Of a DNA stretch of 64,000 bases, positions 5,841-63,030 are shown piece after piece (position 1 is the first letter of the stretch; each line of letters starts with the position of its first letter). The stretch covers positions 29,641 to 93,640 of the forward strand of contig JAJYWX010000003.1 in the NCBI GenBank assembly GCA_021791275.1. Direction: 5' to 3'. The notes below the pieces were generated by a model. The model was not told the origin of the DNA. It ran no database searches and was given only the letters and a program-made list of their open reading frames with translations. The stretch is from a bacterium (GTDB lineage Bacteria > Patescibacteriota > Dojkabacteria > JAKAPS01 > JAJZLI01). The position numbers and the translations under genes are program-made.

Positions 5841-7031
5841 AATTATTATCCAAGCAATCATACCTTCAATTTGGTTATGCAGCGTTAGAAGAGAATATCC
5901 ATGCTCATAAACTCCTCTCAAAGAATTTGCAAGATATGTAAGTGGAAAGAATTTAACAATATCTTGTAGCCATGAAGGAAAACTATTAACTGCAAAAAAT
6001 ACACCTGATAAGAATAACATTGGAAGAGTTATAAGATTTGCTAGAGGAAAAACAGTTTCTGTTTTGTTAGAAATTGTAGATATTAGTAATGCCAATGTAA
6101 CAAACATTAAGGATCCTAGTATTACTACAATTGCAAGATTTATAAACCCTAATATTCCACCCAATGGTACTACATGTATAAATACAGATGCTATTACTAT
6201 AAGAATTGCTACTTGAATTAAAGCAAAAATTAATCTTGTTAATGTTAGTGCAGCAATAAAATCAGATTTTGAAAGTGGAGTTACAGCTAATCTTCTTAAT
6301 ATTCCTAACTCCTTATAATTTACAATAATATTTATAACTGCAAAAATAACACCTTGCATTAATGATAGAGACAATATTCCTGGAACAAGAAAATCAAGAT
6401 AGTTATAACTTTTTCCATTACTACTTACTAATTCAGTCTTAAATTTGAAAGGAGAGAACTCAGTATTGAGACTATTTGATTTTAAAAGATTATATTTAAA
6501 ATTGGTAACAAATAAATCTGTCTCTAAAATATCTGAAGAAGTTTTATCAATATAGAATGAAACATTATAATTATTCAAGAAAGAGTAGTGCAAAAGCTTT
6601 ACGTTTGGAGTTAACCCTGATGTTGACTTTGATGCAGGTATCATAGTCCCCCCAGGGTTTATACTTACTGGTTTTGAATCTGGAGAAACAATAGGCCCTT
6701 GAGGATAAAGTCTTTTTGTTGAATTAGAAGTACTTACATCTATTAATAAATCATTATTACCATTTTTAACATTTTTTAAAGCTTTAGAAAAATTACTTAC
6801 TACTTTCACTGTACCGAAATTTTTCGAGTTCTTAATTATATTTTGTGCAAAACTTTTTGCCTGCTTTGAATAAATAAGTTCTATACTAATCTTAGGGGTA
6901 GAATTTGAATTATAAAGGCTAAATGCCAACATTATAGCTATAGGAAATATAAAAGAAGATATTATTGCAAATCTATTCCTAAAGGTCATCTTCAAACTTG
7001 CAATTGTAAATTTTATAATTCTGTTTATCAT
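5802..7031 (-). CDS. ABC-2 type transporter permease with large N-terminal extracytoplasmic domain
   Basis: 409 aa with an N-terminal TM, a loop of about 180 aa, then 5-6 TM helices typical of ABC-2 permeases. Directly downstream of the ABC ATPase. Confidence 0.7.
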   Translation of the reverse strand: MINRIIKFTIASLKMTFRNRFAIISSFIFPIAIMLAFSLYNSNSTPKISIELIYSKQAKSFAQNIIKNSKNFGTVKVVSNFSKALKNVKNGNNDLLIDVSTSNSTKRLYPQGPIVSPDSKPVSINPGGTMIPASKSTSGLTPNVKLLHYSFLNNYNVSFYIDKTSSDILETDLFVTNFKYNLLKSNSLNTEFSPFKFKTELVSSNGKSYNYLDFLVPGILSLSLMQGVIFAVINIIVNYKELGILRRLAVTPLSKSDFIAALTLTRLIFALIQVAILIVIASVFIHVVPLGGILGFINLAIVVILGSLMFVTLALLISTISNKTETVFPLANLITLPMLFLSGVFFAVNSFPSWLQDIVKFFPLTYLANSLRGVYEHGYSLLTLHNQIEGMIAWIIILFILNVIFFKWE

Positions 7032-33014: not shown

Positions 33015-33481
33015 CTTATTATATCAATATATCTTATATTATCCTTACCTTCAAAATTTATTACTATCTTTTTGTAATCGTCTAAAATCCTTATATATTT
33101 ATCTGCCCACTCTATTATAACAATACCATCATATAAAGTATCAAAAAAATCTACTCCTAGAAGGTCTTCTTTATTATCCATTCTATACCAATCAAAATGA
33201 TAAACCATACCCTTTTTAGACTTATGATCTGATCTCAAAATAAAAGTTGGAGATAAAACATCTTCCTCTACACCAAGCGAGGATAGTAGATACTTTGTAA
33301 AGGTAGTTTTTCCTGCACCTAAATCTCCGACAAGACATATTATCTCGTTACCTTTAAGACTTTTCCCAAATTCTCTTGCTATTTTTTCAGTATCTTTGAG
33401 ACTTTTTGAGGTATATTTCATAATTTTAAAGTATATCACAAAAATATTTACACCAAGGAATGTATAGAGTAAAATACCCAA
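33011..33481 (-). CDS. tsaE: tRNA threonylcarbamoyladenosine biosynthesis ATPase TsaE
   Basis: Walker A LVGDLGAGKTTFTKYLL, at YjeE-like size. Confidence 0.8.
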   Translation of the reverse strand: MGILLYTFLGVNIFVIYFKIMKYTSKSLKDTEKIAREFGKSLKGNEIICLVGDLGAGKTTFTKYLLSSLGVEEDVLSPTFILRSDHKSKKGMVYHFDWYRMDNKEDLLGVDFFDTLYDGIVIIEWADKYIRILDDYKKIVINFEGKDNIRYIDIIR

Positions 33482-33485
33482 TATT

Positions 33486-34790
33486 ATGAATGAAACATTA
33501 GATATAAAAGATATAAGGTGGGGAGCCTCAACTGCAGGACATCAATCAGGAGATAATTCAGGGATCGATGTAGATTGGGTTGAATTTGAGAAAAGAAAAG
33601 CAGAAGAATGGGCAGAAGATTTTGCACCTGGAACAGATTTTGGAAATGGACCCATTGGAGAAGATATTTATGAAAGGATGAAATCAGATGCAAAAAATCC
33701 TGATAATTATATATCCGGAAAGGGAACTGAATGGGCAGATGGAAGATATAAAGAAGATTTAGATATTGCAAAAGATTTAGGGCTAGAGTCTATTAGATTT
33801 TCAATTGAAAGATCAAGAGTAGAGGTAAGTGAAGGAGAATTTTCTGAAGAAGCAATAAAATATTACAAAAGTATAATCAAGGAATGCAGGAAGAGAGGAA
33901 TTGAGCCTATGATAACTCTTTTCCATTTTACAAATCCCACATGGTTTAGTAGAAAAGGTGGATGGGAAGATAAAGAATCTGCACAAAATTTTAGCAGATA
34001 TGTAGGAAAACTTTTAAAAATTCTTGACGAAGATATAAAATATATAATAGTTATAAATGAACCTGATATATATACACTGCAAGGATATGTATGGGGGAAT
34101 TGGCCACCAGAGAAGAAATACTCCCTTATAAATGTTTATAGAGTAAGAAAAAATCTAATTGAAGCACATAAAAGCTCTTTTGATTTAATAAAGGGATATA
34201 ATTCAGAGTCTCAAGTATCTAGTGCAGTTAATCTAACTCACTTTGAACCCAAAACTCCAGCAATAGAGGATTATTTCGGATCTGTCATTTTAGAAAAAAT
34301 AGTCAATGAAGGATTCTTACCATATATATCAGGCCATATGAATTTTATAGCAATTAATTGCTATTTCCATTGCTTAAAAAAGGGTATTTTTCCTTGGAAA
34401 GGTTTATTCGAAAATGATGAGCAGGAAAAAAGATCTGACCTAGGAATATATATAAACCCTATAAGTATATATAAAATCCTTTTATACCTTCATGGAAGGT
34501 ATCCTAATTTACCTATTGAAATAACAGAAAATGGAGTAGCTGATAGGAATGACACTTTGAGACCAGACTTTATAAGAAAAACTCTCTATTATGTTGCAAA
34601 AGCTATACATGCTGGAGTACCGGTGAGATCATACTACCATTGGTCATTAACTGATAATTTTGAGTGGGATAAAGGATTCGCCGCAAGATTTGGGCTAATA
34701 GGAATAGACTATGAAACACAAAAAAGAACTGTAAGGGAATCGGCAAGGGTATATCAAGAGATTATAAGATCTGGAAGAGTTTCTATATAA
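33486..34790 (+). CDS. Glycoside hydrolase family 1 (beta-glucosidase/beta-galactosidase-like)
   Basis: Acid/base motif VINEP and nucleophile motif ITENG (LPIEITENGVAD). 434 aa. Confidence 0.85.
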   Translation: MNETLDIKDIRWGASTAGHQSGDNSGIDVDWVEFEKRKAEEWAEDFAPGTDFGNGPIGEDIYERMKSDAKNPDNYISGKGTEWADGRYKEDLDIAKDLGLESIRFSIERSRVEVSEGEFSEEAIKYYKSIIKECRKRGIEPMITLFHFTNPTWFSRKGGWEDKESAQNFSRYVGKLLKILDEDIKYIIVINEPDIYTLQGYVWGNWPPEKKYSLINVYRVRKNLIEAHKSSFDLIKGYNSESQVSSAVNLTHFEPKTPAIEDYFGSVILEKIVNEGFLPYISGHMNFIAINCYFHCLKKGIFPWKGLFENDEQEKRSDLGIYINPISIYKILLYLHGRYPNLPIEITENGVADRNDTLRPDFIRKTLYYVAKAIHAGVPVRSYYHWSLTDNFEWDKGFAARFGLIGIDYETQKRTVRESARVYQEIIRSGRVSI

Positions 34791-34791
34791 T

Positions 34792-35190
34792 TTATATATT
34801 AATATACTTTGAATATTCTCCTATTACAGGTAAATTGACCATTTTACCATTCATACTATTATATATTCCAATTAGTATAAAAATAAATATAAATAAATCT
34901 AGAATAATATCTACTATCAAAAATAATATATTTATAAACGGAATCCAAGCTAGAATAAATGTAAGAACTGGAACTATAACCACCACTATTATATCTATAA
35001 TCAAAAGTACAATGGATTGTTTTACATGAAACTTAAAAAAATTATCTTTTTGTAATTCCTCTGATATAAAATAAATTAAAATACCAACTACTAAATATGA
35101 AACTGCAGATAGAATTTTTTGATTTTGAGAAATATTTTCACTATCCATTAACCTAATGTATTTAGTATCATAAAACAGACAAAAAAACAA
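34792..35190 (-). CDS. Hypothetical small membrane protein (3 TM)
   Basis: 132-aa ORF. Hydrophobic, with no recognisable motif. Confidence 0.35.
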   Translation of the reverse strand: MFFCLFYDTKYIRLMDSENISQNQKILSAVSYLVVGILIYFISEELQKDNFFKFHVKQSIVLLIIDIIVVVIVPVLTFILAWIPFINILFLIVDIILDLFIFIFILIGIYNSMNGKMVNLPVIGEYSKYINI

Positions 35191-35328
35191 TCATACTGGC
35201 ATATGTTTTAATACCAATTGAGCTTAAAGTGCCTCAGATCGAACCGCTTTTAGTATGGATTATAAAAATAATAGAAGGTAATATGTAATATTTTCACACA
35301 TAATCAATGGGCTCAATTTAACCATTTA

Positions 35329-35769
35329 CTATTCTAGTTTAAAATCTAAAATATATTTAACAGACGTTATTTTATTTTTTGTATTATTAAACAACTTTTT
35401 GTCTGCTGTAATGAAATCATATTTCAAAAATTGTGAAAGTGTGACATAAGAAGCATCATAAAAAGATAAATTATATTTTATTGATATGTTTAATATATCT
35501 AAATAAATTTCTTTTAAATCATAAAAAATTATTCCATAGTCATTAAAGAGACTTAAAGACTCTTTAGCTACGTTGACATCCAATTTCTTTAATCTTACTG
35601 CTGTTGAAAATACATTACCAATCTCATAATTGAGTATTGCTGGAGAATGCAAATTTATTTGCCCTGTATCATATAAATGTTTCAATTTTAGTGCAATATC
35701 AAGATGTTCTTCTTTCCGAAATTGTAAATACCATTTAACGATAATTGAATTATCTAGAATTAAATTCAT
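35329..35769 (-). CDS. vapC: PIN-domain toxin (VapC-like)
   Basis: N-terminal LILDNSIIVKWY with the first acidic D, plus further acidic residues (DASYV, TAD) near the C-terminus. Its ATG overlaps the stop of the upstream small RHH-like gene. Confidence 0.6.
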   Translation of the reverse strand: MNLILDNSIIVKWYLQFRKEEHLDIALKLKHLYDTGQINLHSPAILNYEIGNVFSTAVRLKKLDVNVAKESLSLFNDYGIIFYDLKEIYLDILNISIKYNLSFYDASYVTLSQFLKYDFITADKKLFNNTKNKITSVKYILDFKLE

Positions 35770-36014
35770 TTCAAGTCTTTTTTACTTTCTATAACAATAT
35801 CAGAGAAATCTTTGATTTTTAAGTTTTCTCTAATTTTATCTATTTTTGTACCTATTCTTAACCTTTGGCTATTATCATTTATATCTTGCATTCCTCTAAG
35901 AATCAACATATTTATTACTTTTTGTAAAGATACTTTTTGGTTATACGCAATATCCCGTGCTTGTTTTATTAATACACTATTTATTCTAATTGTTGTTCTT
36001 TCCATTTTATCCAT
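35766..36014 (-). CDS. vapB: Antitoxin, ribbon-helix-helix/CopG-like (VapB-like)
   Basis: 82 aa. MERTTIRINSVLIKQARDIAYNQKVSLQKVINMLILRGM fits the beta-strand then two-helix RHH pattern. Overlaps the vapC start. Confidence 0.5.
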   Translation of the reverse strand: MDKMERTTIRINSVLIKQARDIAYNQKVSLQKVINMLILRGMQDINDNSQRLRIGTKIDKIRENLKIKDFSDIVIESKKDLK

Positions 36015-36035
36015 ATAACCATATTAGCATGAAGA

Positions 36036-36048
36036 TGACATGATGTCA
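36036..36048. promoter_or_regulatory. Perfect palindrome TGACAT-g-ATGTCA, a candidate antitoxin operator 22 bp upstream of vapB
   Basis: Read directly from the sequence. RHH antitoxins commonly autoregulate via inverted repeats. Confidence 0.4.
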
Positions 36049-36144
36049 AGATGTATATTATTAAATCAGGCATTTCGAACCGAATTTATAGGCAAGTTCT
36101 ATCAATACATTTGAGATATTTTCAAGTGGTAGTGTCGCATCACT

Positions 36145-36218
36145 TGACCTTGGCGGGATTCGAACCCGCGATTACCAGGATGAGAACCTGGTGTCCTAGT
36201 CCACTAGACGACAAGGCC
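36145..36218 (-). tRNA. tRNA-Glu (anticodon CTC)
   Basis: Reverse complement reads GGCCTTG TC GTCTAGTGGACTAGGAC A CCAGG TTCTCAT CCTGG TAAT CGCGGG TTCGAAT CCCGC CAAGGTC A. The cloverleaf has a 7-bp acceptor stem (one G-U), a T-loop TTCGAAT and an anticodon loop TT-CTC-AT. CCA is not encoded. Confidence 0.85.
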
Positions 36219-36284
36219 ATTTATAAGCAAAATTATAACATAAAATAAATTTACATTTTGTATTTTTTTTAGTAACATGAAAAC

Positions 36285-37046
36285 ATGCATAAAGTAAAAG
36301 ATTTTATCCTGCCCACCAAAGCAAATAACTTTAAATCTCCCCTACTTTCAAATAAAGCATTGACAGTATATTTCATTTTTCTATTATTTATAAATATAAT
36401 ACTTCCAATTTTCGCAATAAAATCAAACGTATCTATATTATCCCTATACAATAATATTAATAAATATAGAGAGGATCATAATTTAAAAGATTATGTATTT
36501 AGTAAATCCTTGTCTCAATCAGCTCAATTTATTATCGATGATATACAAAGATATCAGTATTTATCTAGAATAAACCCAATTACAGGATATACGTATTATT
36601 CTTTTATTGATACTAAGAGATTTTCTAATAACAATGAAATAATACTTAAAAATTATAACCTATCTAATATCAACACACAAAATATATTTAACTCATATTC
36701 AAACGCGATATTAAATAAGACAAATGATATTGGTATAGCGACTCAAAAAATTAATTTTTTTGGAACACCCTCATACATAACAGTTATTCTTACAGCCTAC
36801 GGAAACTCAAAAAATACGACACCGGTTTTTACAAGCAATACTCGAGGAGAATTTATTGATTACTCAATAATAACTTATACGGATTTCTTACTTATAATAT
36901 TTATACTTTCTTTAATGTTTTTAGATATAACATTTTCTATTTATTACAATTCTTTTGAAGATAAAAGCATCCCGCATACCAATTTCGCAATGGTTGTAAT
37001 TGCAATACTTATTATATTAATCTTAGTTATTGGAATAAGCATATGA
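36285..37046 (+). CDS. Hypothetical membrane-anchored protein with extracytoplasmic domain (weak CAP/SCP-like resemblance)
   Basis: 253 aa with an N-terminal TM, a soluble domain of about 150 aa (NNINKYREDHNLKDY...), then 2 C-terminal TM helices. Confidence 0.35.
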   Translation: MHKVKDFILPTKANNFKSPLLSNKALTVYFIFLLFINIILPIFAIKSNVSILSLYNNINKYREDHNLKDYVFSKSLSQSAQFIIDDIQRYQYLSRINPITGYTYYSFIDTKRFSNNNEIILKNYNLSNINTQNIFNSYSNAILNKTNDIGIATQKINFFGTPSYITVILTAYGNSKNTTPVFTSNTRGEFIDYSIITYTDFLLIIFILSLMFLDITFSIYYNSFEDKSIPHTNFAMVVIAILIILILVIGISI

Positions 37047-37858
37047 AGAAATTAATAAAATATAATATTGAAATATTAACTTTGCTCTTCTTCGTTTCTT
37101 TGCAAATATTGATTTTTTTGCTTTTTATATCTTCAATAAATTTCATACTTATATATATATTTATAATTGACCTTATAGTCATAGTATCTTTAATTGATGG
37201 AACGAAGAAATTTAAAGAAAATGTAAAAGAAAAAAAGATTTCTAAAAATGATAAAAATATATACTTCTATAATCAACTCATAATACCTTTAGTTTTATTT
37301 CTATCTACAGAAGTATTCTTAATAATTAACAGATTTAATATCTATTTTTCAGAGCTTACACTTATAATAACAGTAGTATTATTTTTTACATCACTAAAAT
37401 ACTTTGAAGCTTATTTTGAAGTATTTGAATTTAGTGAGAAAGCACATTTTACAATAAATGCTGTAAAGCTTTTTATATTCTTTATACTTATATACTCCCT
37501 TTTTGAGGTATCATCAATCCTTTATATATCCCAATATATACAGTCAGCATTTGTACTACTTATATCTTTTGCACTAATATTAATGATAATGCAAAGAAAT
37601 AAGATTTATTCATTAAAATTTATACTCTACTCTTTTTTAATTTCTCTATTTATATCTTTAATATCTCTTTTAGAAAATATTTATCTGCAGAATGTACTTC
37701 TTACAACATTTTCTATATCTTTAATATTTTATTTTTTTGAAAATATACTCCATCATAAATTTCATAATACACTCACCAGAGAGATTATTATTCAATACAT
37801 CTTAATAATATTAATACTATTTCTTCTAATTAAAGGTGTTGTTGGACTATCTCTATGA
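37043..37858 (+). CDS. Hypothetical polytopic membrane protein
   Basis: 271 aa with 7-8 hydrophobic helices. Start overlaps the upstream stop. Confidence 0.35.
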   Translation: MKKLIKYNIEILTLLFFVSLQILIFLLFISSINFILIYIFIIDLIVIVSLIDGTKKFKENVKEKKISKNDKNIYFYNQLIIPLVLFLSTEVFLIINRFNIYFSELTLIITVVLFFTSLKYFEAYFEVFEFSEKAHFTINAVKLFIFFILIYSLFEVSSILYISQYIQSAFVLLISFALILMIMQRNKIYSLKFILYSFLISLFISLISLLENIYLQNVLLTTFSISLIFYFFENILHHKFHNTLTREIIIQYILIILILFLLIKGVVGLSL

Positions 37859-38145
37859 AGAAATTAAAGGTTAAAAAACTATCTAATATTCAAGATAAAT
37901 CTTTGGGAAAGATAAAGTATAAAGATGAGAATATTTTCTTTAAAACAAGATTCGGTATTCATACATTTGGAATCAAAGAAAAAATAACAGTAGTTATACT
38001 AGATAATGATTTCAAGGTGAAGACAATTAAGGAAGTTTTGCCAAATAGATTATTTTTTTGGAATATAAAATATAAGAATGTAATCGAGCTAAATGAAGAT
38101 AATACGATAGACTTAAAAATTGGAGATAAAATTGAAATATACTAG
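37855..38145 (+). CDS. DUF192 (COG1430)-like small protein
   Basis: FGIHTFGIKEKITVVILDNDFKV...IDLKIGDKIEI resembles the IHTFGM...DVxFLDxDGxV...GD core of DUF192. Confidence 0.4.
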   Translation: MKKLKVKKLSNIQDKSLGKIKYKDENIFFKTRFGIHTFGIKEKITVVILDNDFKVKTIKEVLPNRLFFWNIKYKNVIELNEDNTIDLKIGDKIEIY

Positions 38146-38146
38146 A

Positions 38147-39406
38147 TTAAAAGACCGCCGCAAAAAATATATTACCAGGATCATATCTTAGACCTCCTCC
38201 CATATTTTGACCAAATGTAAGATTTGGGCCAAACCAAGGATCCTGCATAGTACCAGATGCTCCAACAGCACCAGTCATTGTTACAAAATGTGTACCAAAA
38301 GGATTATCTGGAACATAGAATCCTATAACTACTGGAGAAGAAGGTGATGCATATGCATCTATTTCAGATATAGATGGATTGTATATCAATTGTTGAACAC
38401 CAGGTAGAGACCCAAATTCCGTTCCCCCATTACCTGTCCAATATGAGACTGCTGAATAAGGATTAAATCCTGTATTTCCTATTAAATTTTCAGCCATAAT
38501 TGCAGCAATTAAAGAACACCCAGCGTTACTGTAAGTATCCCCAGATGAATCTAATACATATCCTCCCCATGAAGGACATTCTTGAGAATAATAAAATCCA
38601 GTATTACAAGGTACATTAGCAGGTATTACACCAGGAGTTCCTTCTGAAAGCTCTAAGCTTGCAATTTTTTGAAGTATAGATTGCTGTTGTTGTTGGATTT
38701 GGGAATTGGAAGATTGAAGTGAATTATTACTACTTTGGAATTGAGATTGCTCATTTTTAAGTGCATTTTGGTCCGCAATAAGAGAATCCTCTGTTGAAAC
38801 CTCTTGGTTATAAAGGCTCTGTGCATCATTTTGTTTTAATACCAATGAAGATTTATTTGCATTAAGAGATGAGATCAAAGCATCCATTTTTATAACTAAA
38901 TCATTTTCATGAGTCATAGTAGCCTTATAATAAACAACAGACTCAATAGCACTATTAATGTTTGAATTTCCCATAAACATTGTTACTGGAGGTATGTATG
39001 TTTCCTCATATCCAGATTTTGCATTTTGATCTATTTTTCCTTTTATAACAGATATTTGGTTCTCTTCTGAGGCAATCTGAGCATTTAAAGCATTTATTTG
39101 AGAATCTAACTGATCTATTTGAGCTTTTTCATTATTAACTAATACTTGTTTTTGAAATATTAGCTGTTGATAACTATTGATTTGCGCTTGAAGGTTTGAA
39201 ATATTATTATTATTTTGTTGTATTTTTTGTTGATTTTGATTTATAAGATTCTGAAGATCATTGTACTGCTGTTGTAGTGCACCAAGAGATGAAGTTGCAT
39301 TAACAACCTTGGGCTTTGCTAACATAAGAGGATATATCACTATTGATGTAATTAAAAATAGAAATAAAGCTAATCTTATTTTTTTATATTTAAAAAATAT
39401 ATTCAT
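38147..39406 (-). CDS. Secreted coiled-coil protein with C-terminal papain-like cysteine peptidase domain (Peptidase_C39-like/CHAP-like), a putative FtsEX-regulated cell-wall hydrolase
   Basis: N-terminal signal/TM segment, then about 230 aa of Q/N-rich heptad-like coiled coil. The C-terminal domain has catalytic-type Cys (SNAGCSLIAAIMA) and His (GTHFVTMTGAVGASGTMQDPWFG), matching the C39-like pattern. It lies directly downstream of ftsE-ftsX. Confidence 0.6.
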   Translation of the reverse strand: MNIFFKYKKIRLALFLFLITSIVIYPLMLAKPKVVNATSSLGALQQQYNDLQNLINQNQQKIQQNNNNISNLQAQINSYQQLIFQKQVLVNNEKAQIDQLDSQINALNAQIASEENQISVIKGKIDQNAKSGYEETYIPPVTMFMGNSNINSAIESVVYYKATMTHENDLVIKMDALISSLNANKSSLVLKQNDAQSLYNQEVSTEDSLIADQNALKNEQSQFQSSNNSLQSSNSQIQQQQQSILQKIASLELSEGTPGVIPANVPCNTGFYYSQECPSWGGYVLDSSGDTYSNAGCSLIAAIMAENLIGNTGFNPYSAVSYWTGNGGTEFGSLPGVQQLIYNPSISEIDAYASPSSPVVIGFYVPDNPFGTHFVTMTGAVGASGTMQDPWFGPNLTFGQNMGGGLRYDPGNIFFAAVF

Positions 39407-61147: not shown

Positions 61148-61519
61148 TCAATATTCATTAAGTATCTTTTGTATGTTCTTAATTTCTTTATTATCTAATT
61201 TTATTTTTTTTAAAGAGACTTTATCTAATACAATATCATTTGCCATTGATAGTAATTCCTTTTTATTCTTTTTATTCGAATTTTCACAAAGATAATTATA
61301 TATTTTATCCCTTTTTAAGGTATATAAAGATACTAGTTTAAAGTAGTACATAATTTTGGTAAAAAACGATGTAATTAAAATTGATATTAGGAGGTAAAGA
61401 ATAAAAAGATATAAATTAAAATAAACTATAGATTCAAAGGTTTTATATATAAAATATATACCGAAAACAAAAAGTACAATAGATACTATAAAATTAAATT
61501 TAAGAGATTTTTTTCTCAT
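61148..61519 (-). CDS. Hypothetical small membrane protein (2 TM)
   Basis: 123-aa ORF downstream of the subunit-IV-like gene. Confidence 0.3.
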   Translation of the reverse strand: MRKKSLKFNFIVSIVLFVFGIYFIYKTFESIVYFNLYLFILYLLISILITSFFTKIMYYFKLVSLYTLKRDKIYNYLCENSNKKNKKELLSMANDIVLDKVSLKKIKLDNKEIKNIQKILNEY

Positions 61520-62444
61520 TGTAATATCTTCTCCAAATTATTTTATATATTGGAATATAATAAGGAATTTTATTTAAAACTGGTATTATTGGGATGAAAA
61601 ACAATATTGCAATAAATACGCTAAACGTTAGAAATGCCATTAAGTCTCCCGAAGGGGAAGTAGAATAAGGAGGTATTTGATATAAGGATGTATATAAAAA
61701 TAACCACCAAGGACCAGGATAGTTTCCCTCCTCTTTTAAAATCCCCCACTGATCGCCAAGCATAGAATAATTTTTAGCCATATTTGCAAGTGGAGCACCC
61801 TGTAAAAATAACAATTTATTTTGGAAATTATATGAATACACCCCGTTATTCCCTTTTAAATTATTATCTAAAAGGTTTTGAAATACTCCAGTCTGAGCCA
61901 GGATTAACAAATCGTTTTCCATACCCTGAATGGGACCATATTCTCCATTCTTAACAATAACTTTCCCCTTATAGACTTTAGCTGAATTCAAAGCTTTATA
62001 ATAATTTTCCTCATACTTATTTAAAAGACTCTTATCATAGTGGGATAAATAAAAATATTGATTCATAAGAGTCTTTACTTTTTGAGATAATCGCGAATAA
62101 GTTATTAAAGGATCTATAAAAAAGACCTCTTTGGGGTGTACAGAAACAGTTACCCCCTCAATTCCCTCTGGCGATATGAATCCTACAGATTGTGCTTGTC
62201 CATTTTTATTATAGGGAGGACCATAATCCTCCAGAGAGGAGATTCCCAATATATTTCTAGATTCCACTTTTTCAAAACCTACCGGACTACTCTTAGAATA
62301 AGACATAATTGACAGGGGTTTCATTTGTGGAGATTTAAAAAGTAAAGCTAAAATTAGAATAAAAGCTAAAACTGCAAAAAAAGCATATAAAAATTCTTTT
62401 ATAAGATCTGATTCTTTTTGTTTATATTTATCTTCTTCATTCAT
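61500..62444 (-). CDS. Membrane protein with a large extracytoplasmic insert and C-terminal cytochrome b C-terminal/subunit-IV-like segment (PEWY-like PWWLF)
   Basis: One N-terminal TM, a soluble region of about 190 aa, then YPGPWWLFLYTSLYQIPP plus a TM (LMAFLTFSVFIAILFFIPIIPVL), which resembles the PEWYF.PvfqILR plus helix F of PetD/QcrC. Immediately follows the cytochrome b6-like gene. Start taken at the internal Met (62444); the longer ORF would begin at 62501. Confidence 0.4.
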   Translation of the reverse strand: MNEEDKYKQKESDLIKEFLYAFFAVLAFILILALLFKSPQMKPLSIMSYSKSSPVGFEKVESRNILGISSLEDYGPPYNKNGQAQSVGFISPEGIEGVTVSVHPKEVFFIDPLITYSRLSQKVKTLMNQYFYLSHYDKSLLNKYEENYYKALNSAKVYKGKVIVKNGEYGPIQGMENDLLILAQTGVFQNLLDNNLKGNNGVYSYNFQNKLLFLQGAPLANMAKNYSMLGDQWGILKEEGNYPGPWWLFLYTSLYQIPPYSTSPSGDLMAFLTFSVFIAILFFIPIIPVLNKIPYYIPIYKIIWRRYYNEKKIS

Positions 62445-62445
62445 A

Positions 62446-63030
62446 TCATTCAATTGGGGGTACAACCCCTTTCTTCCTAACAAAAAATAAATGTATGCCA
62501 AGAAGCGCTACTAATATTATTGGAAGTATCACTACATGCAACCCATAAATTTGACTATTATTTAATATATTAATAAATCCAGTTAATCCAATCGCATTCA
62601 TTGCATCTTTAGCTTGCACTTGGTTCCATTGTGCAAAAAATCCCCCACCAATAAGATAGCCCAAGAAAGCTTCAAACATAGATATTCCAAAAAGCATAAC
62701 CCCCAACATCCATGTAATAATCCTTCCTTCTCTCCAACCTGCCATAAAAAAAACTGAAATCATATGTACTATCATGAAAAAAAAGAATACCTGAGCTCCC
62801 CAGAAATGTATCGATCTGAAGAAAAGTCCTAACGAAGAGTATTGGTACCAAATGGGTCCTTCTAAAACCATTATTATTCCTGATGATATAACGATAACAA
62901 GACTTGCCATCGTAAGAACCCCAAACATATATACAAAAGAGGATACATACACTGGTAATGTATCAGGAAGCATCATATCTGGGTCTAAATCTTTTTTTAT
63001 CTCTTTTTTTACTACCCTAGTTATATTCAT
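62446..63030 (-). CDS. Cytochrome b6-type dihaem membrane protein (PetB/QcrB N-terminal-domain homolog)
   Basis: Aligns by eye along its length with cytochrome b6. FRSIHFWGAQVFFFFMIVH has His-x13-His, compared with RSVHRWSASMMVLMMILH. TWMLGVMLF...FLGYLI matches TWVTGVVLA...VTGYSL. IYGLHVVILPIILVALLGIHLFFVRKKG has His-x14-His, compared with [28 protein letters not shown]. All four haem-ligand His are at b6 spacing. Confidence 0.7.
   Translation of the reverse strand: MNITRVVKKEIKKDLDPDMMLPDTLPVYVSSFVYMFGVLTMASLVIVISSGIIMVLEGPIWYQYSSLGLFFRSIHFWGAQVFFFFMIVHMISVFFMAGWREGRIITWMLGVMLFGISMFEAFLGYLIGGGFFAQWNQVQAKDAMNAIGLTGFINILNNSQIYGLHVVILPIILVALLGIHLFFVRKKGVVPPIE

Follow-up and report, generated by a model that had tools for sequence, protein, structure and literature searches.

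Within the 64-kb window (the whole stretch of DNA that was analysed), an intact gene for tRNA-Glu(CTC) without an encoded CCA lies on the minus strand at 36144–36219 (ARAGORN; Rfam RF00005, 62.5 bits), followed on its 3′ side by two overlapping genes on the same strand. The further of the two, vapC (35329–35769), encodes a 146-aa PIN-domain toxin that scored above the gathering cutoff of Pfam PF01850 (27.7 bits; cutoff, 23.6), matched the PIN proteins PAE2754 and PAE0151 in the PDB (E = 2e-4), and possesses an acidic quartet (D6, E49, D105, D123) that is invariant across 13 homologues. Judged by its family, VapC is predicted to be an intact PIN ribonuclease. The nearer gene, vapB (35766–36014, minus strand; ORF call), encodes an 82-aa antitoxin, and its stop overlaps the vapC start (ATGA).

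Sequence profiles returned little for VapB, which reached the threshold of no Pfam or NCBIfam antitoxin model, with DUF6364 matched weakly by 12 of the 13 family members and a single marginal CopG-family match for the VapB profile in a PDB sequence search (E = 0.022). Its relatives numbered only 10 among 1.84 billion representatives. A first predicted structure, based on 10 near-identical sequences, was all-helical (pLDDT 69.6) and uninformative in fold searches, and was replaced by an AF2 model built from a more diverse alignment. The final model consists of an extended N-terminus and two helices (pLDDT 89–95 at residues 11–40), read as an N-terminal ribbon-helix-helix (RHH; RTTIRI strand, helices 13–26 and 30–44) followed by a C-terminal tail. 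In a fold search of the PDB, the top ~25 matches were nearly all RHH proteins (probability, 0.8–0.96; E just 0.07–0.8), including Arc, CopG, CdbA, Rv0298, and a Mycobacterium tuberculosis VapB (5x3t). The gene pair is thus supported as a vapBC-type toxin-antitoxin (TA) module of PIN and RHH proteins, and overlapping PIN and RHH-like genes beside tRNA-Glu(CTC), as proposed in an earlier sequence-only reading of this DNA, were confirmed by ARAGORN and Rfam for the tRNA, by Pfam for the toxin, and by fold rather than sequence profile for the antitoxin.

A promoter scan identified a sigma-70 type promoter with an extended −10 upstream of vapB (36021–36049, minus strand; score, 10/12), composed of TTGACA (36049–36044), a 17-nt spacer, and TG-TAATAT (36026–36021). 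The −35 box, the −10 box, and the 6-nt spacing to the vapB ATG are invariant across 7 intact copies of the cassette described below, and the vapBC mRNA is probably leaderless because the ATG lies only 6 nt past the −10 box. The perfect palindrome TGACAT-g-ATGTCA that the sequence-only reading had placed 22 bp upstream of vapB was recovered at 36036–36048, 21–22 nt upstream of the ATG and overlapping the −35 box. It is intact in 5 of the 7 cassettes, with L097 departing from it at one position and L099 at three, and is a candidate VapB operator. By analogy with the family, VapB most likely binds this palindrome and represses the operon, and most likely neutralises VapC via its C-terminal tail.

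The position of tRNA-Glu is kept in the related loci L011, L012/L091, L092, L212, and L218. The three membrane or secreted genes on its other side (36285–38145), once suggested to be part of the same island, have the same order beside the tRNA and ftsEX in all relatives (54–55% amino-acid identity) and, because of this conserved neighbourhood, are core genes and not island genes. On the 3′ side, variable DNA runs away from the tRNA as far as tsaE at 33481. When compared to L011 (FtsX 85% identical), homology stops exactly at 36145, where the tRNA has its 3′ end, and picks up again in tsaE, such that foreign DNA starts at or within the 3′ end of an intact tRNA gene. When compared to L012 (77%), homology ends at 35218, and other modules separate the vapBC ortholog from the tRNA, placing it 2.6 kb more distant. 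The interval between these limits (35218–36143; 926 bp) contains vapBC only, with no recombination or transfer genes. The cassette locus lies at a tRNA-linked hotspot for insertions and is a miniature, integrase-less form of a tRNA-targeted genomic island, for which tRNA-Glu(CTC) is the anchor of a cassette array. On balance, the interval is best read as one mobile cassette directly 3′ of the tRNA, acquired through serial site-specific insertion by a recombinase acting in trans, a reading held with modest confidence.

The cassette is enclosed by a two-part shell. Its left part (36068–36143, minus strand) is a leader of ~76 nt, Y, with an inner box at the end away from the tRNA (GTGATGCGACAC...GAATGTATTGATA...AAATTCGGTTCGAAATGCCT). 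Eleven copies with a conserved consensus were detected by nhmmer in 5 genomes, most at E = 1e-8 to 1e-26 and the weakest at 643–748 of L212 (E = 2e-4). The leader opens many units and always adjoins the tRNA 3′ end or a copy of that end; in the cargo-only copies L097 and L099 homology begins only at 36049–36058. The right part (35218–35282, minus strand; ...AATCCATACTAAAAGCGGTTCGATCTGAGGCA-CTTTAAGCTCAA) is X, an element of ~65 nt that finishes in a copy of the last 10–12 nt of tRNA-Glu. In the entire 64-kb window the X profile had a single match (nhmmer, E = 4e-18 or 6e-17). According to the junction table, the duplicated segment is the 3′-terminal acceptor strand, with the core CGCCAAGGTCAA as the last 12 nt of the tRNA (36155–36144, minus strand) and the probable crossover region on the attL side. 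The attR-side copy in the window, CTTTAAGCTCAA at 35229–35218, has decayed to 8/12, a match that is not significant alone (p = 0.14) and is recognisable only because it ends a conserved X. Exact core copies of 10–12 nt occur in L091 (r2/r3), L092 (r2/r3), and L218 (b/c), with p = 0.001–0.02 against shuffles.

X also closes cassettes in L091 (4 copies), L092, L212, L218 (4 copies), and L097, and it closes every recognisable cassette, including vapBC, a second vapBC (vapBC-2), RelE/YafQ pairs, NYN, and AAA_14–DUF4143. The unrelated loci searched outside the arrays had no X.core, and one match to X, in L204 (E = 1e-6), falls within a coding sequence and was attributed to chance. After ...AAGGTCA, every junction continues either as leader (AGTGATGCGACAC...) or as CCA...; for tRNA-Glu itself, species B and D show an encoded CCA, and the window and species C the leader. 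As every junction switches at this same point, the tRNA's own end included, the exchange point is placed at the tRNA 3′ end. X maintains a constant orientation relative to the tRNA even when the cargo is inverted (vapBC-2, YafQ, NYN), which argues for a site acting at the level of DNA rather than a transcript element. The ends of the cassette are direct, and a test for an insertion sequence or MITE found no inverted pair with arms in 35218–35290 and 36060–36143. Copies of X align best to different arms of the tRNA (T-arm or anticodon arm), with weak scores. A variant core, CTTAAGGTCA, is also present.

In four sister species or strains, the whole interval from the tRNA-Glu 3′ end to tsaE is replaced by 1–5 units drawn from these same cargo types, each unit ~0.7–1.4 kb in size and consisting of one gene or one TA operon. 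All assemblies of the window species have the vapBC pair at this position, whereas it is absent from the tRNA-Glu locus in L011/L214 and displaced in L012/L091. L218 has AAA_14 and YafQ cassettes that are missing in L212, despite flanks that are 95–98% identical, and in both cases the difference amounts to cargo plus one X; L091 and L092 differ by one cassette. The limits of cassette presence and absence between strains fall exactly at X copies, and the X1 copy of L212 switches parentage inside the ~10-nt core. L091 and L092 also have mosaic leaders and swapped X types, which need homologous exchange and not clean site-specific events. The shell is carried by one small lineage only (about 4 species, thinly sampled). 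The remainder of the variable segment in the window (33482–35217), with a membrane-protein gene (34792–35148/35190, minus strand) and a GH1 glycosidase gene (33486–34790, plus strand), has no recognisable shell and no match to X; it is swapped for unrelated genes in L011, L012/L091, and L218, with homology resuming in tsaE at 33397.

The cargo is mobile independently of the shell. Copies of vapBC with 83–92% amino-acid identity occupy at least 5 neighbourhoods, of which two adjoin rve/rve_3 fragments and one is behind tRNA-Lys. In the latter (L213), tRNA-Lys(CTT) precedes the same leader and cargo, and the 3′ end of this tRNA shares nothing with the tRNA-Glu core. No recombinase (Phage_integrase or Resolvase) was found in any array or among those ORFs of the 64-kb window that were checked; the only rve-type matches are the fragments beside the cargo copies not associated with a tRNA. 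Plasmid and phage collections had no match to the cassette DNA, and a viral collection matched neither X nor the 3′ end of tRNA-Glu, with only chance matches to the leader word. A metagenome scan for AAAAGNGGTTCNNNCTNAGGCA returned 110 stretches, and every one that was inspected proved to be a chance match, located in unrelated DNA that was mostly of higher GC; the one low-GC match, L204, is within a protein-coding gene. Neither a circular junction nor an empty site was observed, and an empty site sought via the adjacent 118-aa membrane protein gave 22 of 22 contigs with the same arrangement or a break nearby. For the window species, a set of Logan contigs all begin at the final 30 nt of the tRNA, which shows an assembly-graph branch; they were not used as evidence, because relatives that co-occur and differ slightly in the tRNA body would explain the branch as well as excision would.

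Under the proposed mechanism, circular or donor cassettes carrying X.core.leader would recombine with the 3′-terminal core of the tRNA by means of a site-specific recombinase supplied in trans. New arrivals at the tRNA would push older cassettes outward, which would account for the tendency of the outermost core copy to decay, an order that is not strict, and the repeats could later double as substrates for homologous exchange. The window would then represent an array of one cassette, with the tRNA end as attL and the decayed copy at 35218–35229 as attR. Its cargo is a self-contained type II TA operon, in which the sigma-70 promoter is predicted to drive a probably leaderless vapB-vapC transcript.

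A rival account is that of the sequence-only reading, in which one large tRNA island decayed to its TA module and two 17-mers containing TCGAACC are T-arm-derived attL and attR scars. TCGAACC does occur at 35239, 36075, and 36160, with 5 copies across the whole window compared to 1.1 expected from shuffles. The left 17-mer, CAGATCGAACCGCTTTT, exists as well, at 35235–35251 and not at 35234–35250, where only 5/17 positions match the right 17-mer (36071–36087). The reported match of 13/17, in contrast, is at chance level, as 49% of 400 control pairs of equal size and spacing from the same window reached 13/17 or better, and four different 17-mer pairs between both intergenic flanks reached it too. 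What is unusual is only the GC-rich word TCGAACCG common to both, since an equally informative word is shared in just 4% of controls; among direct repeats of the region it ranks first. The 17-mers do not score as pieces of the tRNA and show no significant echo of its T-arm: at E ≤ 10 Rfam detected no partial tRNA at either one, and when the left element was aligned locally with the tRNA, the result was p = 0.14 against shuffles. The two 17-mers do fall in the right and left shells, the left one inside X, with the decayed core copy just outside it, and the right one as the inner box of the conserved leader and not a crossover scar. However, the X profile had no match at the right site even at E ≤ 1, the 7-mer there is specific to the window (relatives have GGTTTGAAAT, GGATTGAAAT, or GGTTCAAAAC), and homology breaks at 36145/36143 and 35218, off the 17-mers, which are not supported as attL and attR. 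The sister arrays have small units of ~0.7–1.4 kb, never with an integrase, and no large-island remnants. This history is very unlikely. Its underlying idea, a mobile cassette linked to a tRNA and ending in a repeat that has decayed, was right in outline, with different parts. A locus in which nothing is mobile, with a vertically inherited chromosomal vapBC and flank similarities that are coincidental or regulatory, would fit the identical vapBC position in all assemblies of the window species, yet the synteny comparison refutes it: the pair is missing from this locus in L011/L214, displaced in L012/L091, and found in four other neighbourhoods (83–92%), and of all the accounts considered this is the hardest to credit.

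A stronger competitor is homologous recombination only, whereby the shell is a relic of one or a few old integrations that serves as portable homology for RecA-mediated exchange, with no dedicated recombinase, and cassettes are replaced, deleted, or added by incoming DNA from relatives. The leader of L092 is a mosaic, in part like Y2 and in part like Y4 of L091; X′ precedes vapBC in L091 and follows it in L092; and the vapBC alleles of L212 and L218 are 87.7% identical within flanks of 95–98%. A recA gene is present in the window, and no integrase was found in the arrays or the window ORFs checked. Such exchange would not predict that unrelated cargo is always closed by the same X.core, that all junctions, the tRNA's included, fall at the same nucleotide after AAGGTCA, or that parentage in L212 X1 switches within the ~10-nt core and not anywhere in the 65-nt repeat, and new cargo would have to gain the shell before it could move. 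This alternative is considered unlikely, though it keeps real weight. An integron-like origin, in which X.core represents attC-like folded sites in a cluster without its integron integrase, agrees with an array of one-operon cassettes that each have a ~65-nt site at one end and no adjacent integrase, and chromosomal integron arrays typically carry TA genes. When six X.core/leader sites were folded as DNA, however, z-scores of −0.73 to +1.35 against shuffles revealed no hairpin potential. The sites are conserved in sequence as direct copies of the tRNA end, the cargo varies in orientation and has its own promoter, no IntI-like gene was found in the arrays or the window ORFs checked, and the array is headed by a tRNA gene with core genes beyond, all of which renders an integron origin highly improbable. 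Serial site-specific insertion of cassettes at the tRNA end is therefore retained as the favoured reading of the cassette.

A wider extension of this reading is doubtful but conceivable, namely that the lineage has a tRNA-anchored cassette system, integron-like in function but different in construction, in which the 3′ end of tRNA-Glu, and possibly of other tRNAs such as tRNA-Lys in L213, captures ~1-kb one-operon cassettes with a two-part shell, and a recombinase encoded elsewhere inserts, excises, and shuffles them. Few bacterial genes are as horizontally mobile as TA operons, which usually have no visible vehicle of their own, and to our knowledge few mobile-element mechanisms have been described for the reduced genomes of Patescibacteria. 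Here vapBC and other TA, NYN, and AAA_14 genes share the same ~140 nt of conserved ends behind a tRNA, whole units differ between near-identical strains, and the DNA sites involved are concrete and testable as recombination substrates. The locus illustrates cassette-based plasticity of a reduced genome, and the shell offers a search image for similar arrays. If the system exists as proposed, it would supply a defined vehicle for TA and small defence genes, whose mobility has long been noted.

Among the closest known systems are the ssrA islands of Dehalococcoides, which occur in tandem and are bounded by a 20-bp repeat of ssrA's 3′ end with an adjacent conserved motif not derived from ssrA; some have no integration module and are proposed to be cis-mobilizable (PMC3146451). 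Both systems have tandem units behind one small-RNA gene, a boundary that repeats the 3′ end of that gene (20 bp there, 10–12 nt here), a conserved motif of non-RNA origin just upstream of the repeat (here X), conserved sequence around the repeats, and strain-specific content. The ssrA islands, however, span kilobases to tens of kilobases and most have a serine-recombinase module (DsiB), whereas the units described here are ~0.7–1.4 kb with a recombinase found in none, target tRNA-Glu and not tmRNA, and reside in a patescibacterium. Cis-mobilizable elements (CIMEs) likewise have bounding att-type direct repeats and no recombination or transfer genes, and they undergo tandem accretion at one site with an integrase supplied in trans (reviewed in PMC5704250). 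The cassette is similarly bounded by repeats and encodes no recombination or transfer functions, but CIMEs are normally recognised beside a related ICE or IME as the source of the integrase, a partner that was not found here, and the cassettes are far smaller, with a common shell in two parts (76 nt plus 65 nt). Chromosomal integrons and attC clusters consist of very small, TA-rich cassettes with one site each and vary between strains by whole cassettes. The arrays resemble them in all these respects and differ in the lack of attC hairpins, in sites that copy a tRNA end, in a primary site that is a tRNA gene and not attI, in cargo that has its own promoter and either orientation, and in IntI not having been found. 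As for the cargo, it corresponds to VapBC systems (M. tuberculosis 5x3t; Pyrobaculum PAE2754 and PAE0151) in its PIN toxin, whose four acidic residues are conserved, its small upstream RHH antitoxin, its overlapping genes, and its promoter palindrome, and departs from the usual VapBC in the tiny sequence family of its VapB and a transcript that is probably leaderless.

The window, from a Patescibacteria MAG and with a G+C content of ~30%, carries one tRNA-Glu(CTC) (36144–36219, minus strand; ARAGORN and Rfam both giving one tRNA), and the gene pair reported beside it was borne out. In the orientation of the tRNA, a 129-nt non-coding spacer leads to an 82-aa ORF (vapB, 36014–35766, minus strand) that overlaps a 146-aa ORF (vapC, 35769–35329, minus strand) at an ATGA, followed by a 138-nt non-coding stretch and then by a small membrane protein, a GH1 glycosidase (other strand), and tsaE-tsaB-tsaD. 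On the opposite side of the tRNA are three small genes, whose products are a secreted CAP-like protein, a membrane protein resembling DUF5656, and a protein of 96 aa, and past these a 419-aa coiled-coil protein and ftsX-ftsE-prfB.

VapC matches Pfam PIN (27.7 bits; threshold, 23.6) and the Pyrobaculum PIN structures PAE2754 and PAE0151 (PDB), with an acidic quartet (D6, E49, D105, D123) invariant in 13 homologues. P0002, a strain variant 98% identical to it, has Ala at the position of the catalytic Asp105 and may be inactive as a toxin. VapB has 11 near-identical orthologues and just 10 matches among 1.84 billion cluster representatives, and its family profiles are all sub-threshold (DUF6364 in 12 of 13 members, CopG_antitoxin in three, Arc in one). 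A first AF2 model, with near-identical sequences as input, was uninformative; a second, using a more diverse alignment, predicted helices at 13–26 and 30–44, preceded by an extended N-terminal stretch (RTTIRI; pLDDT ~90). The best ~25 PDB fold matches of this model were nearly all ribbon-helix-helix, one MatP chain among them, and included Arc, CopG, CdbA, AmrZ, and the antitoxins Rv0298, KacA, MazE6, and M. tuberculosis VapB (probabilities up to 0.96, but E-values of 0.07–0.8). Based on the PIN match and these fold matches, the pair was accepted as vapBC with a predicted ribbon-helix-helix antitoxin, as had been proposed.

A promoter scan identified TTGACA-17-TG-TAATAT at 36049–36021 (minus strand). 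The palindrome noted earlier upstream of vapB is present at 36036–36048, where it overlaps the −35 hexamer, and is unbroken in five of seven intact cassette copies. The vapB ATG occurs exactly 6 nt past the −10 box in all seven (window 36012–36026 and the alignment of relatives) and no Shine-Dalgarno sequence precedes vapB, together suggesting that the operon mRNA is probably leaderless.

A genome scan with FtsX recovered only two close relatives, L011 (species B, 85% identity) and L012 (species C, 77%), all others being ≤38% identical. Both preserve the order from ftsX through the 419-aa gene and the three small genes to tRNA-Glu, with syntenic homologues of the three small genes 54–55% identical; having kept their order beside the tRNA, these are core genes and not the island members they had been suggested to be. 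Downstream of the tRNA, the gene content is different throughout. Homology between L011 and the window ends one base short of the tRNA 3′ end, at 36145, and restarts in tsaE; the interval in L011 codes for a remnant of Fic, a protein of 415 aa, and a TPR protein. In L012/L091 (species C), the tRNA is followed by a second vapBC in inverted orientation, the remnant of another vapBC, a RelE/YafQ pair, and a fragment of AAA_14, and only after these come the orthologue of the window vapBC and more TA and AAA_14 genes, while L218/L212 (species D, the fourth species) carry NYN, AAA_14-DUF4143, vapBC, and a YafQ pair in inverted orientation. The G+C content at 34800–38200 of the window is 19–26%, compared to about 30–33% in the flanks; as the dip takes in the conserved membrane-protein genes as well as the variable segment, it is no marker of the island.

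Every unit in these arrays closes with a conserved ~65-nt element, X. A profile search detected four copies in L091, three in L092, four in L218, two in L212, one in L097, and exactly one in the 64-kb window (35282–35218), with none in the unrelated loci searched; a match in L204 was within a coding gene and attributed to chance. X terminates in a copy of the final 10–12 nt of tRNA-Glu (CGCCAAGGTCAA), the core, which is exact in several cases (p = 0.001–0.02) and decayed in the window (CTTTAAGCTCAA, 35229–35218); a shared variant core, CTTAAGGTCA, was also seen. A junction table had ...AAGGTCA followed either by a conserved leader (AGTGATGCGACAC...GAATGTATTGATA...TTTGAAATGCCT) or by CCA and other DNA, and the tRNA gene itself shows both states: L011, L212, and L218 have an encoded CCA, whereas L091, L092, and the window have the leader. 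The 11 leader copies, from five genomes, align well, and the orientation of X relative to the tRNA is constant, even with inverted cargo. Logan contigs of the window species from eight sequencing runs (L003–L008, L343, L344) all start with the last 30 nt of tRNA-Glu, corresponding to k−1 for k = 31, indicating that the assembly graph branches at the tRNA in many samples.

The sequence-only reading had assigned attL/attR scars to two 17-mers, both of which exist, the left one at 35235–35251, one base from its reported place. Their match at 13 of 17 positions carries no weight: four different pairs of 17-mers, one from each flank, reach this level, as do 49% of 400 control pairs drawn from the window. 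The information content of their common word, TCGAACCG, is equalled in just 4% of controls, which is suggestive, no more. Neither was recognisable as a tRNA fragment by alignment or Rfam, contrary to the proposed T-arm echo. The right 17-mer is the inner end of the leader, where relatives have GGTTTGAAAT and the window GGTTCGAAAT, and the X profile gave no match there even at E ≤ 1. Since X ends like the tRNA and the right 17-mer belongs to the leader, the left repeat would have its true partner in the 3′ end of the tRNA itself; the left 17-mer is an interior piece of the right shell, and the right 17-mer one of the left shell. The observation was confirmed in part and its interpretation supported in part: the concept was right, the att sites, extent, and island membership wrong.

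Differences between strains follow the same units. L212 and L218 (flanks 95–98% identical) differ by an AAA_14-DUF4143 unit and a YafQ unit present only in L218, each consisting of cargo plus one X, and in X1 of L212 parentage changes inside the core itself; L091 and L092 (96–98.6% identical) differ by the AAA_14-fragment unit. The mobile cargo extends from 36049/36058 to 35298/35338 (promoter to 30 nt past vapC) and occurs at 83–92% protein identity in other settings: beside rve fragments in L097 (X downstream) and L099, and in L213 (1615–1815), where cargo and leader directly follow the encoded CCA of tRNA-Lys(CTT). Other tRNA 3′ ends may therefore collect these cassettes. From that cassette to a convergent tRNA-Arg(TCG), L213 carries HicB-like, AAA_14-DUF4143, and CopG-like genes.

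The pattern has five traits: the junction is fixed at the tRNA 3′ end, every boundary carries a copy of that end, the arms on either side are conserved, units lie in tandem, and the outermost core copy is the most decayed one in the window and in L218. Such a pattern is that of integration at a tRNA or tmRNA gene which is both serial and site-specific. Neither the arrays nor those ORFs of the 64-kb window that were checked include a recombinase, and the tRNA-end pattern with small units lacking this gene favours a recombinase supplied in trans that would integrate the cassettes at the tRNA end, the cassettes behaving as cis-mobilizable elements, an account considered reasonably probable. Shells certainly undergo homologous exchange as well, to judge from the mosaic leader in L092 and from X types that have traded places between this strain and L091; such exchange could be the sole ongoing process, which is the less likely account. 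An integron-like reading fails on the attC folding test, and a transposon-type unit was rejected as the cassette has no inverted ends. For the pattern of serial integration, the tandem ssrA islands of Dehalococcoides are the nearest case described; in them, a conserved motif not derived from ssrA adjoins the repeat (PMC3146451), much as X does here. The present arrays differ in scale and autonomy, their units being ~0.7–1.4 kb, with one operon each and without a recombinase.

Other mobile DNA was also present. A 1,040-bp insert in L091 (11128–12168), absent in L092, contains a YafQ-type TA pair and part of a DDE_Tnp_1 gene, with ~45-bp inverted repeats at or near both ends (the right stops at the junction; the left begins ~25 nt inside), and is a second vehicle for TA genes within this array, of transposon type. 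In one strain, mobile DNA has also struck on the other side of the tRNA: an IS encoding a 495-aa DDE_Tnp_1 transposase (L091 2239–4944, absent in L092) interrupts an AAA_14 gene that lies between the gene for the 419-aa protein and the conserved trio of small genes. L214 (GCA_027425055.1, species B; 6240–6410) lacks a ~215-bp segment relative to L011 (14100–14450; flanks 99% identical) that in L011 contains the entire tRNA-Glu(CTC) gene, through either real loss or assembly collapse; if truly lost, GAG could be read by tRNA-Glu(UUC).

The 419-aa protein (38147–39406, minus strand), encoded directly after ftsE-ftsX, combines a long coiled coil rich in Q/N with a globular C-terminal part. No Pfam domain was detected in it, but where it lies and how it is built are reminiscent of cell-wall hydrolases of the PcsB type, which are FtsEX-controlled. 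Far from the tRNA (61500–63030), the window has a gene pair for a cytochrome-b-like protein (194–207 aa) and an unannotated ~320-aa protein, and a similar pair occurs in L218 (2228–3794) inside the variable segment from tRNA-Glu to tsaE.
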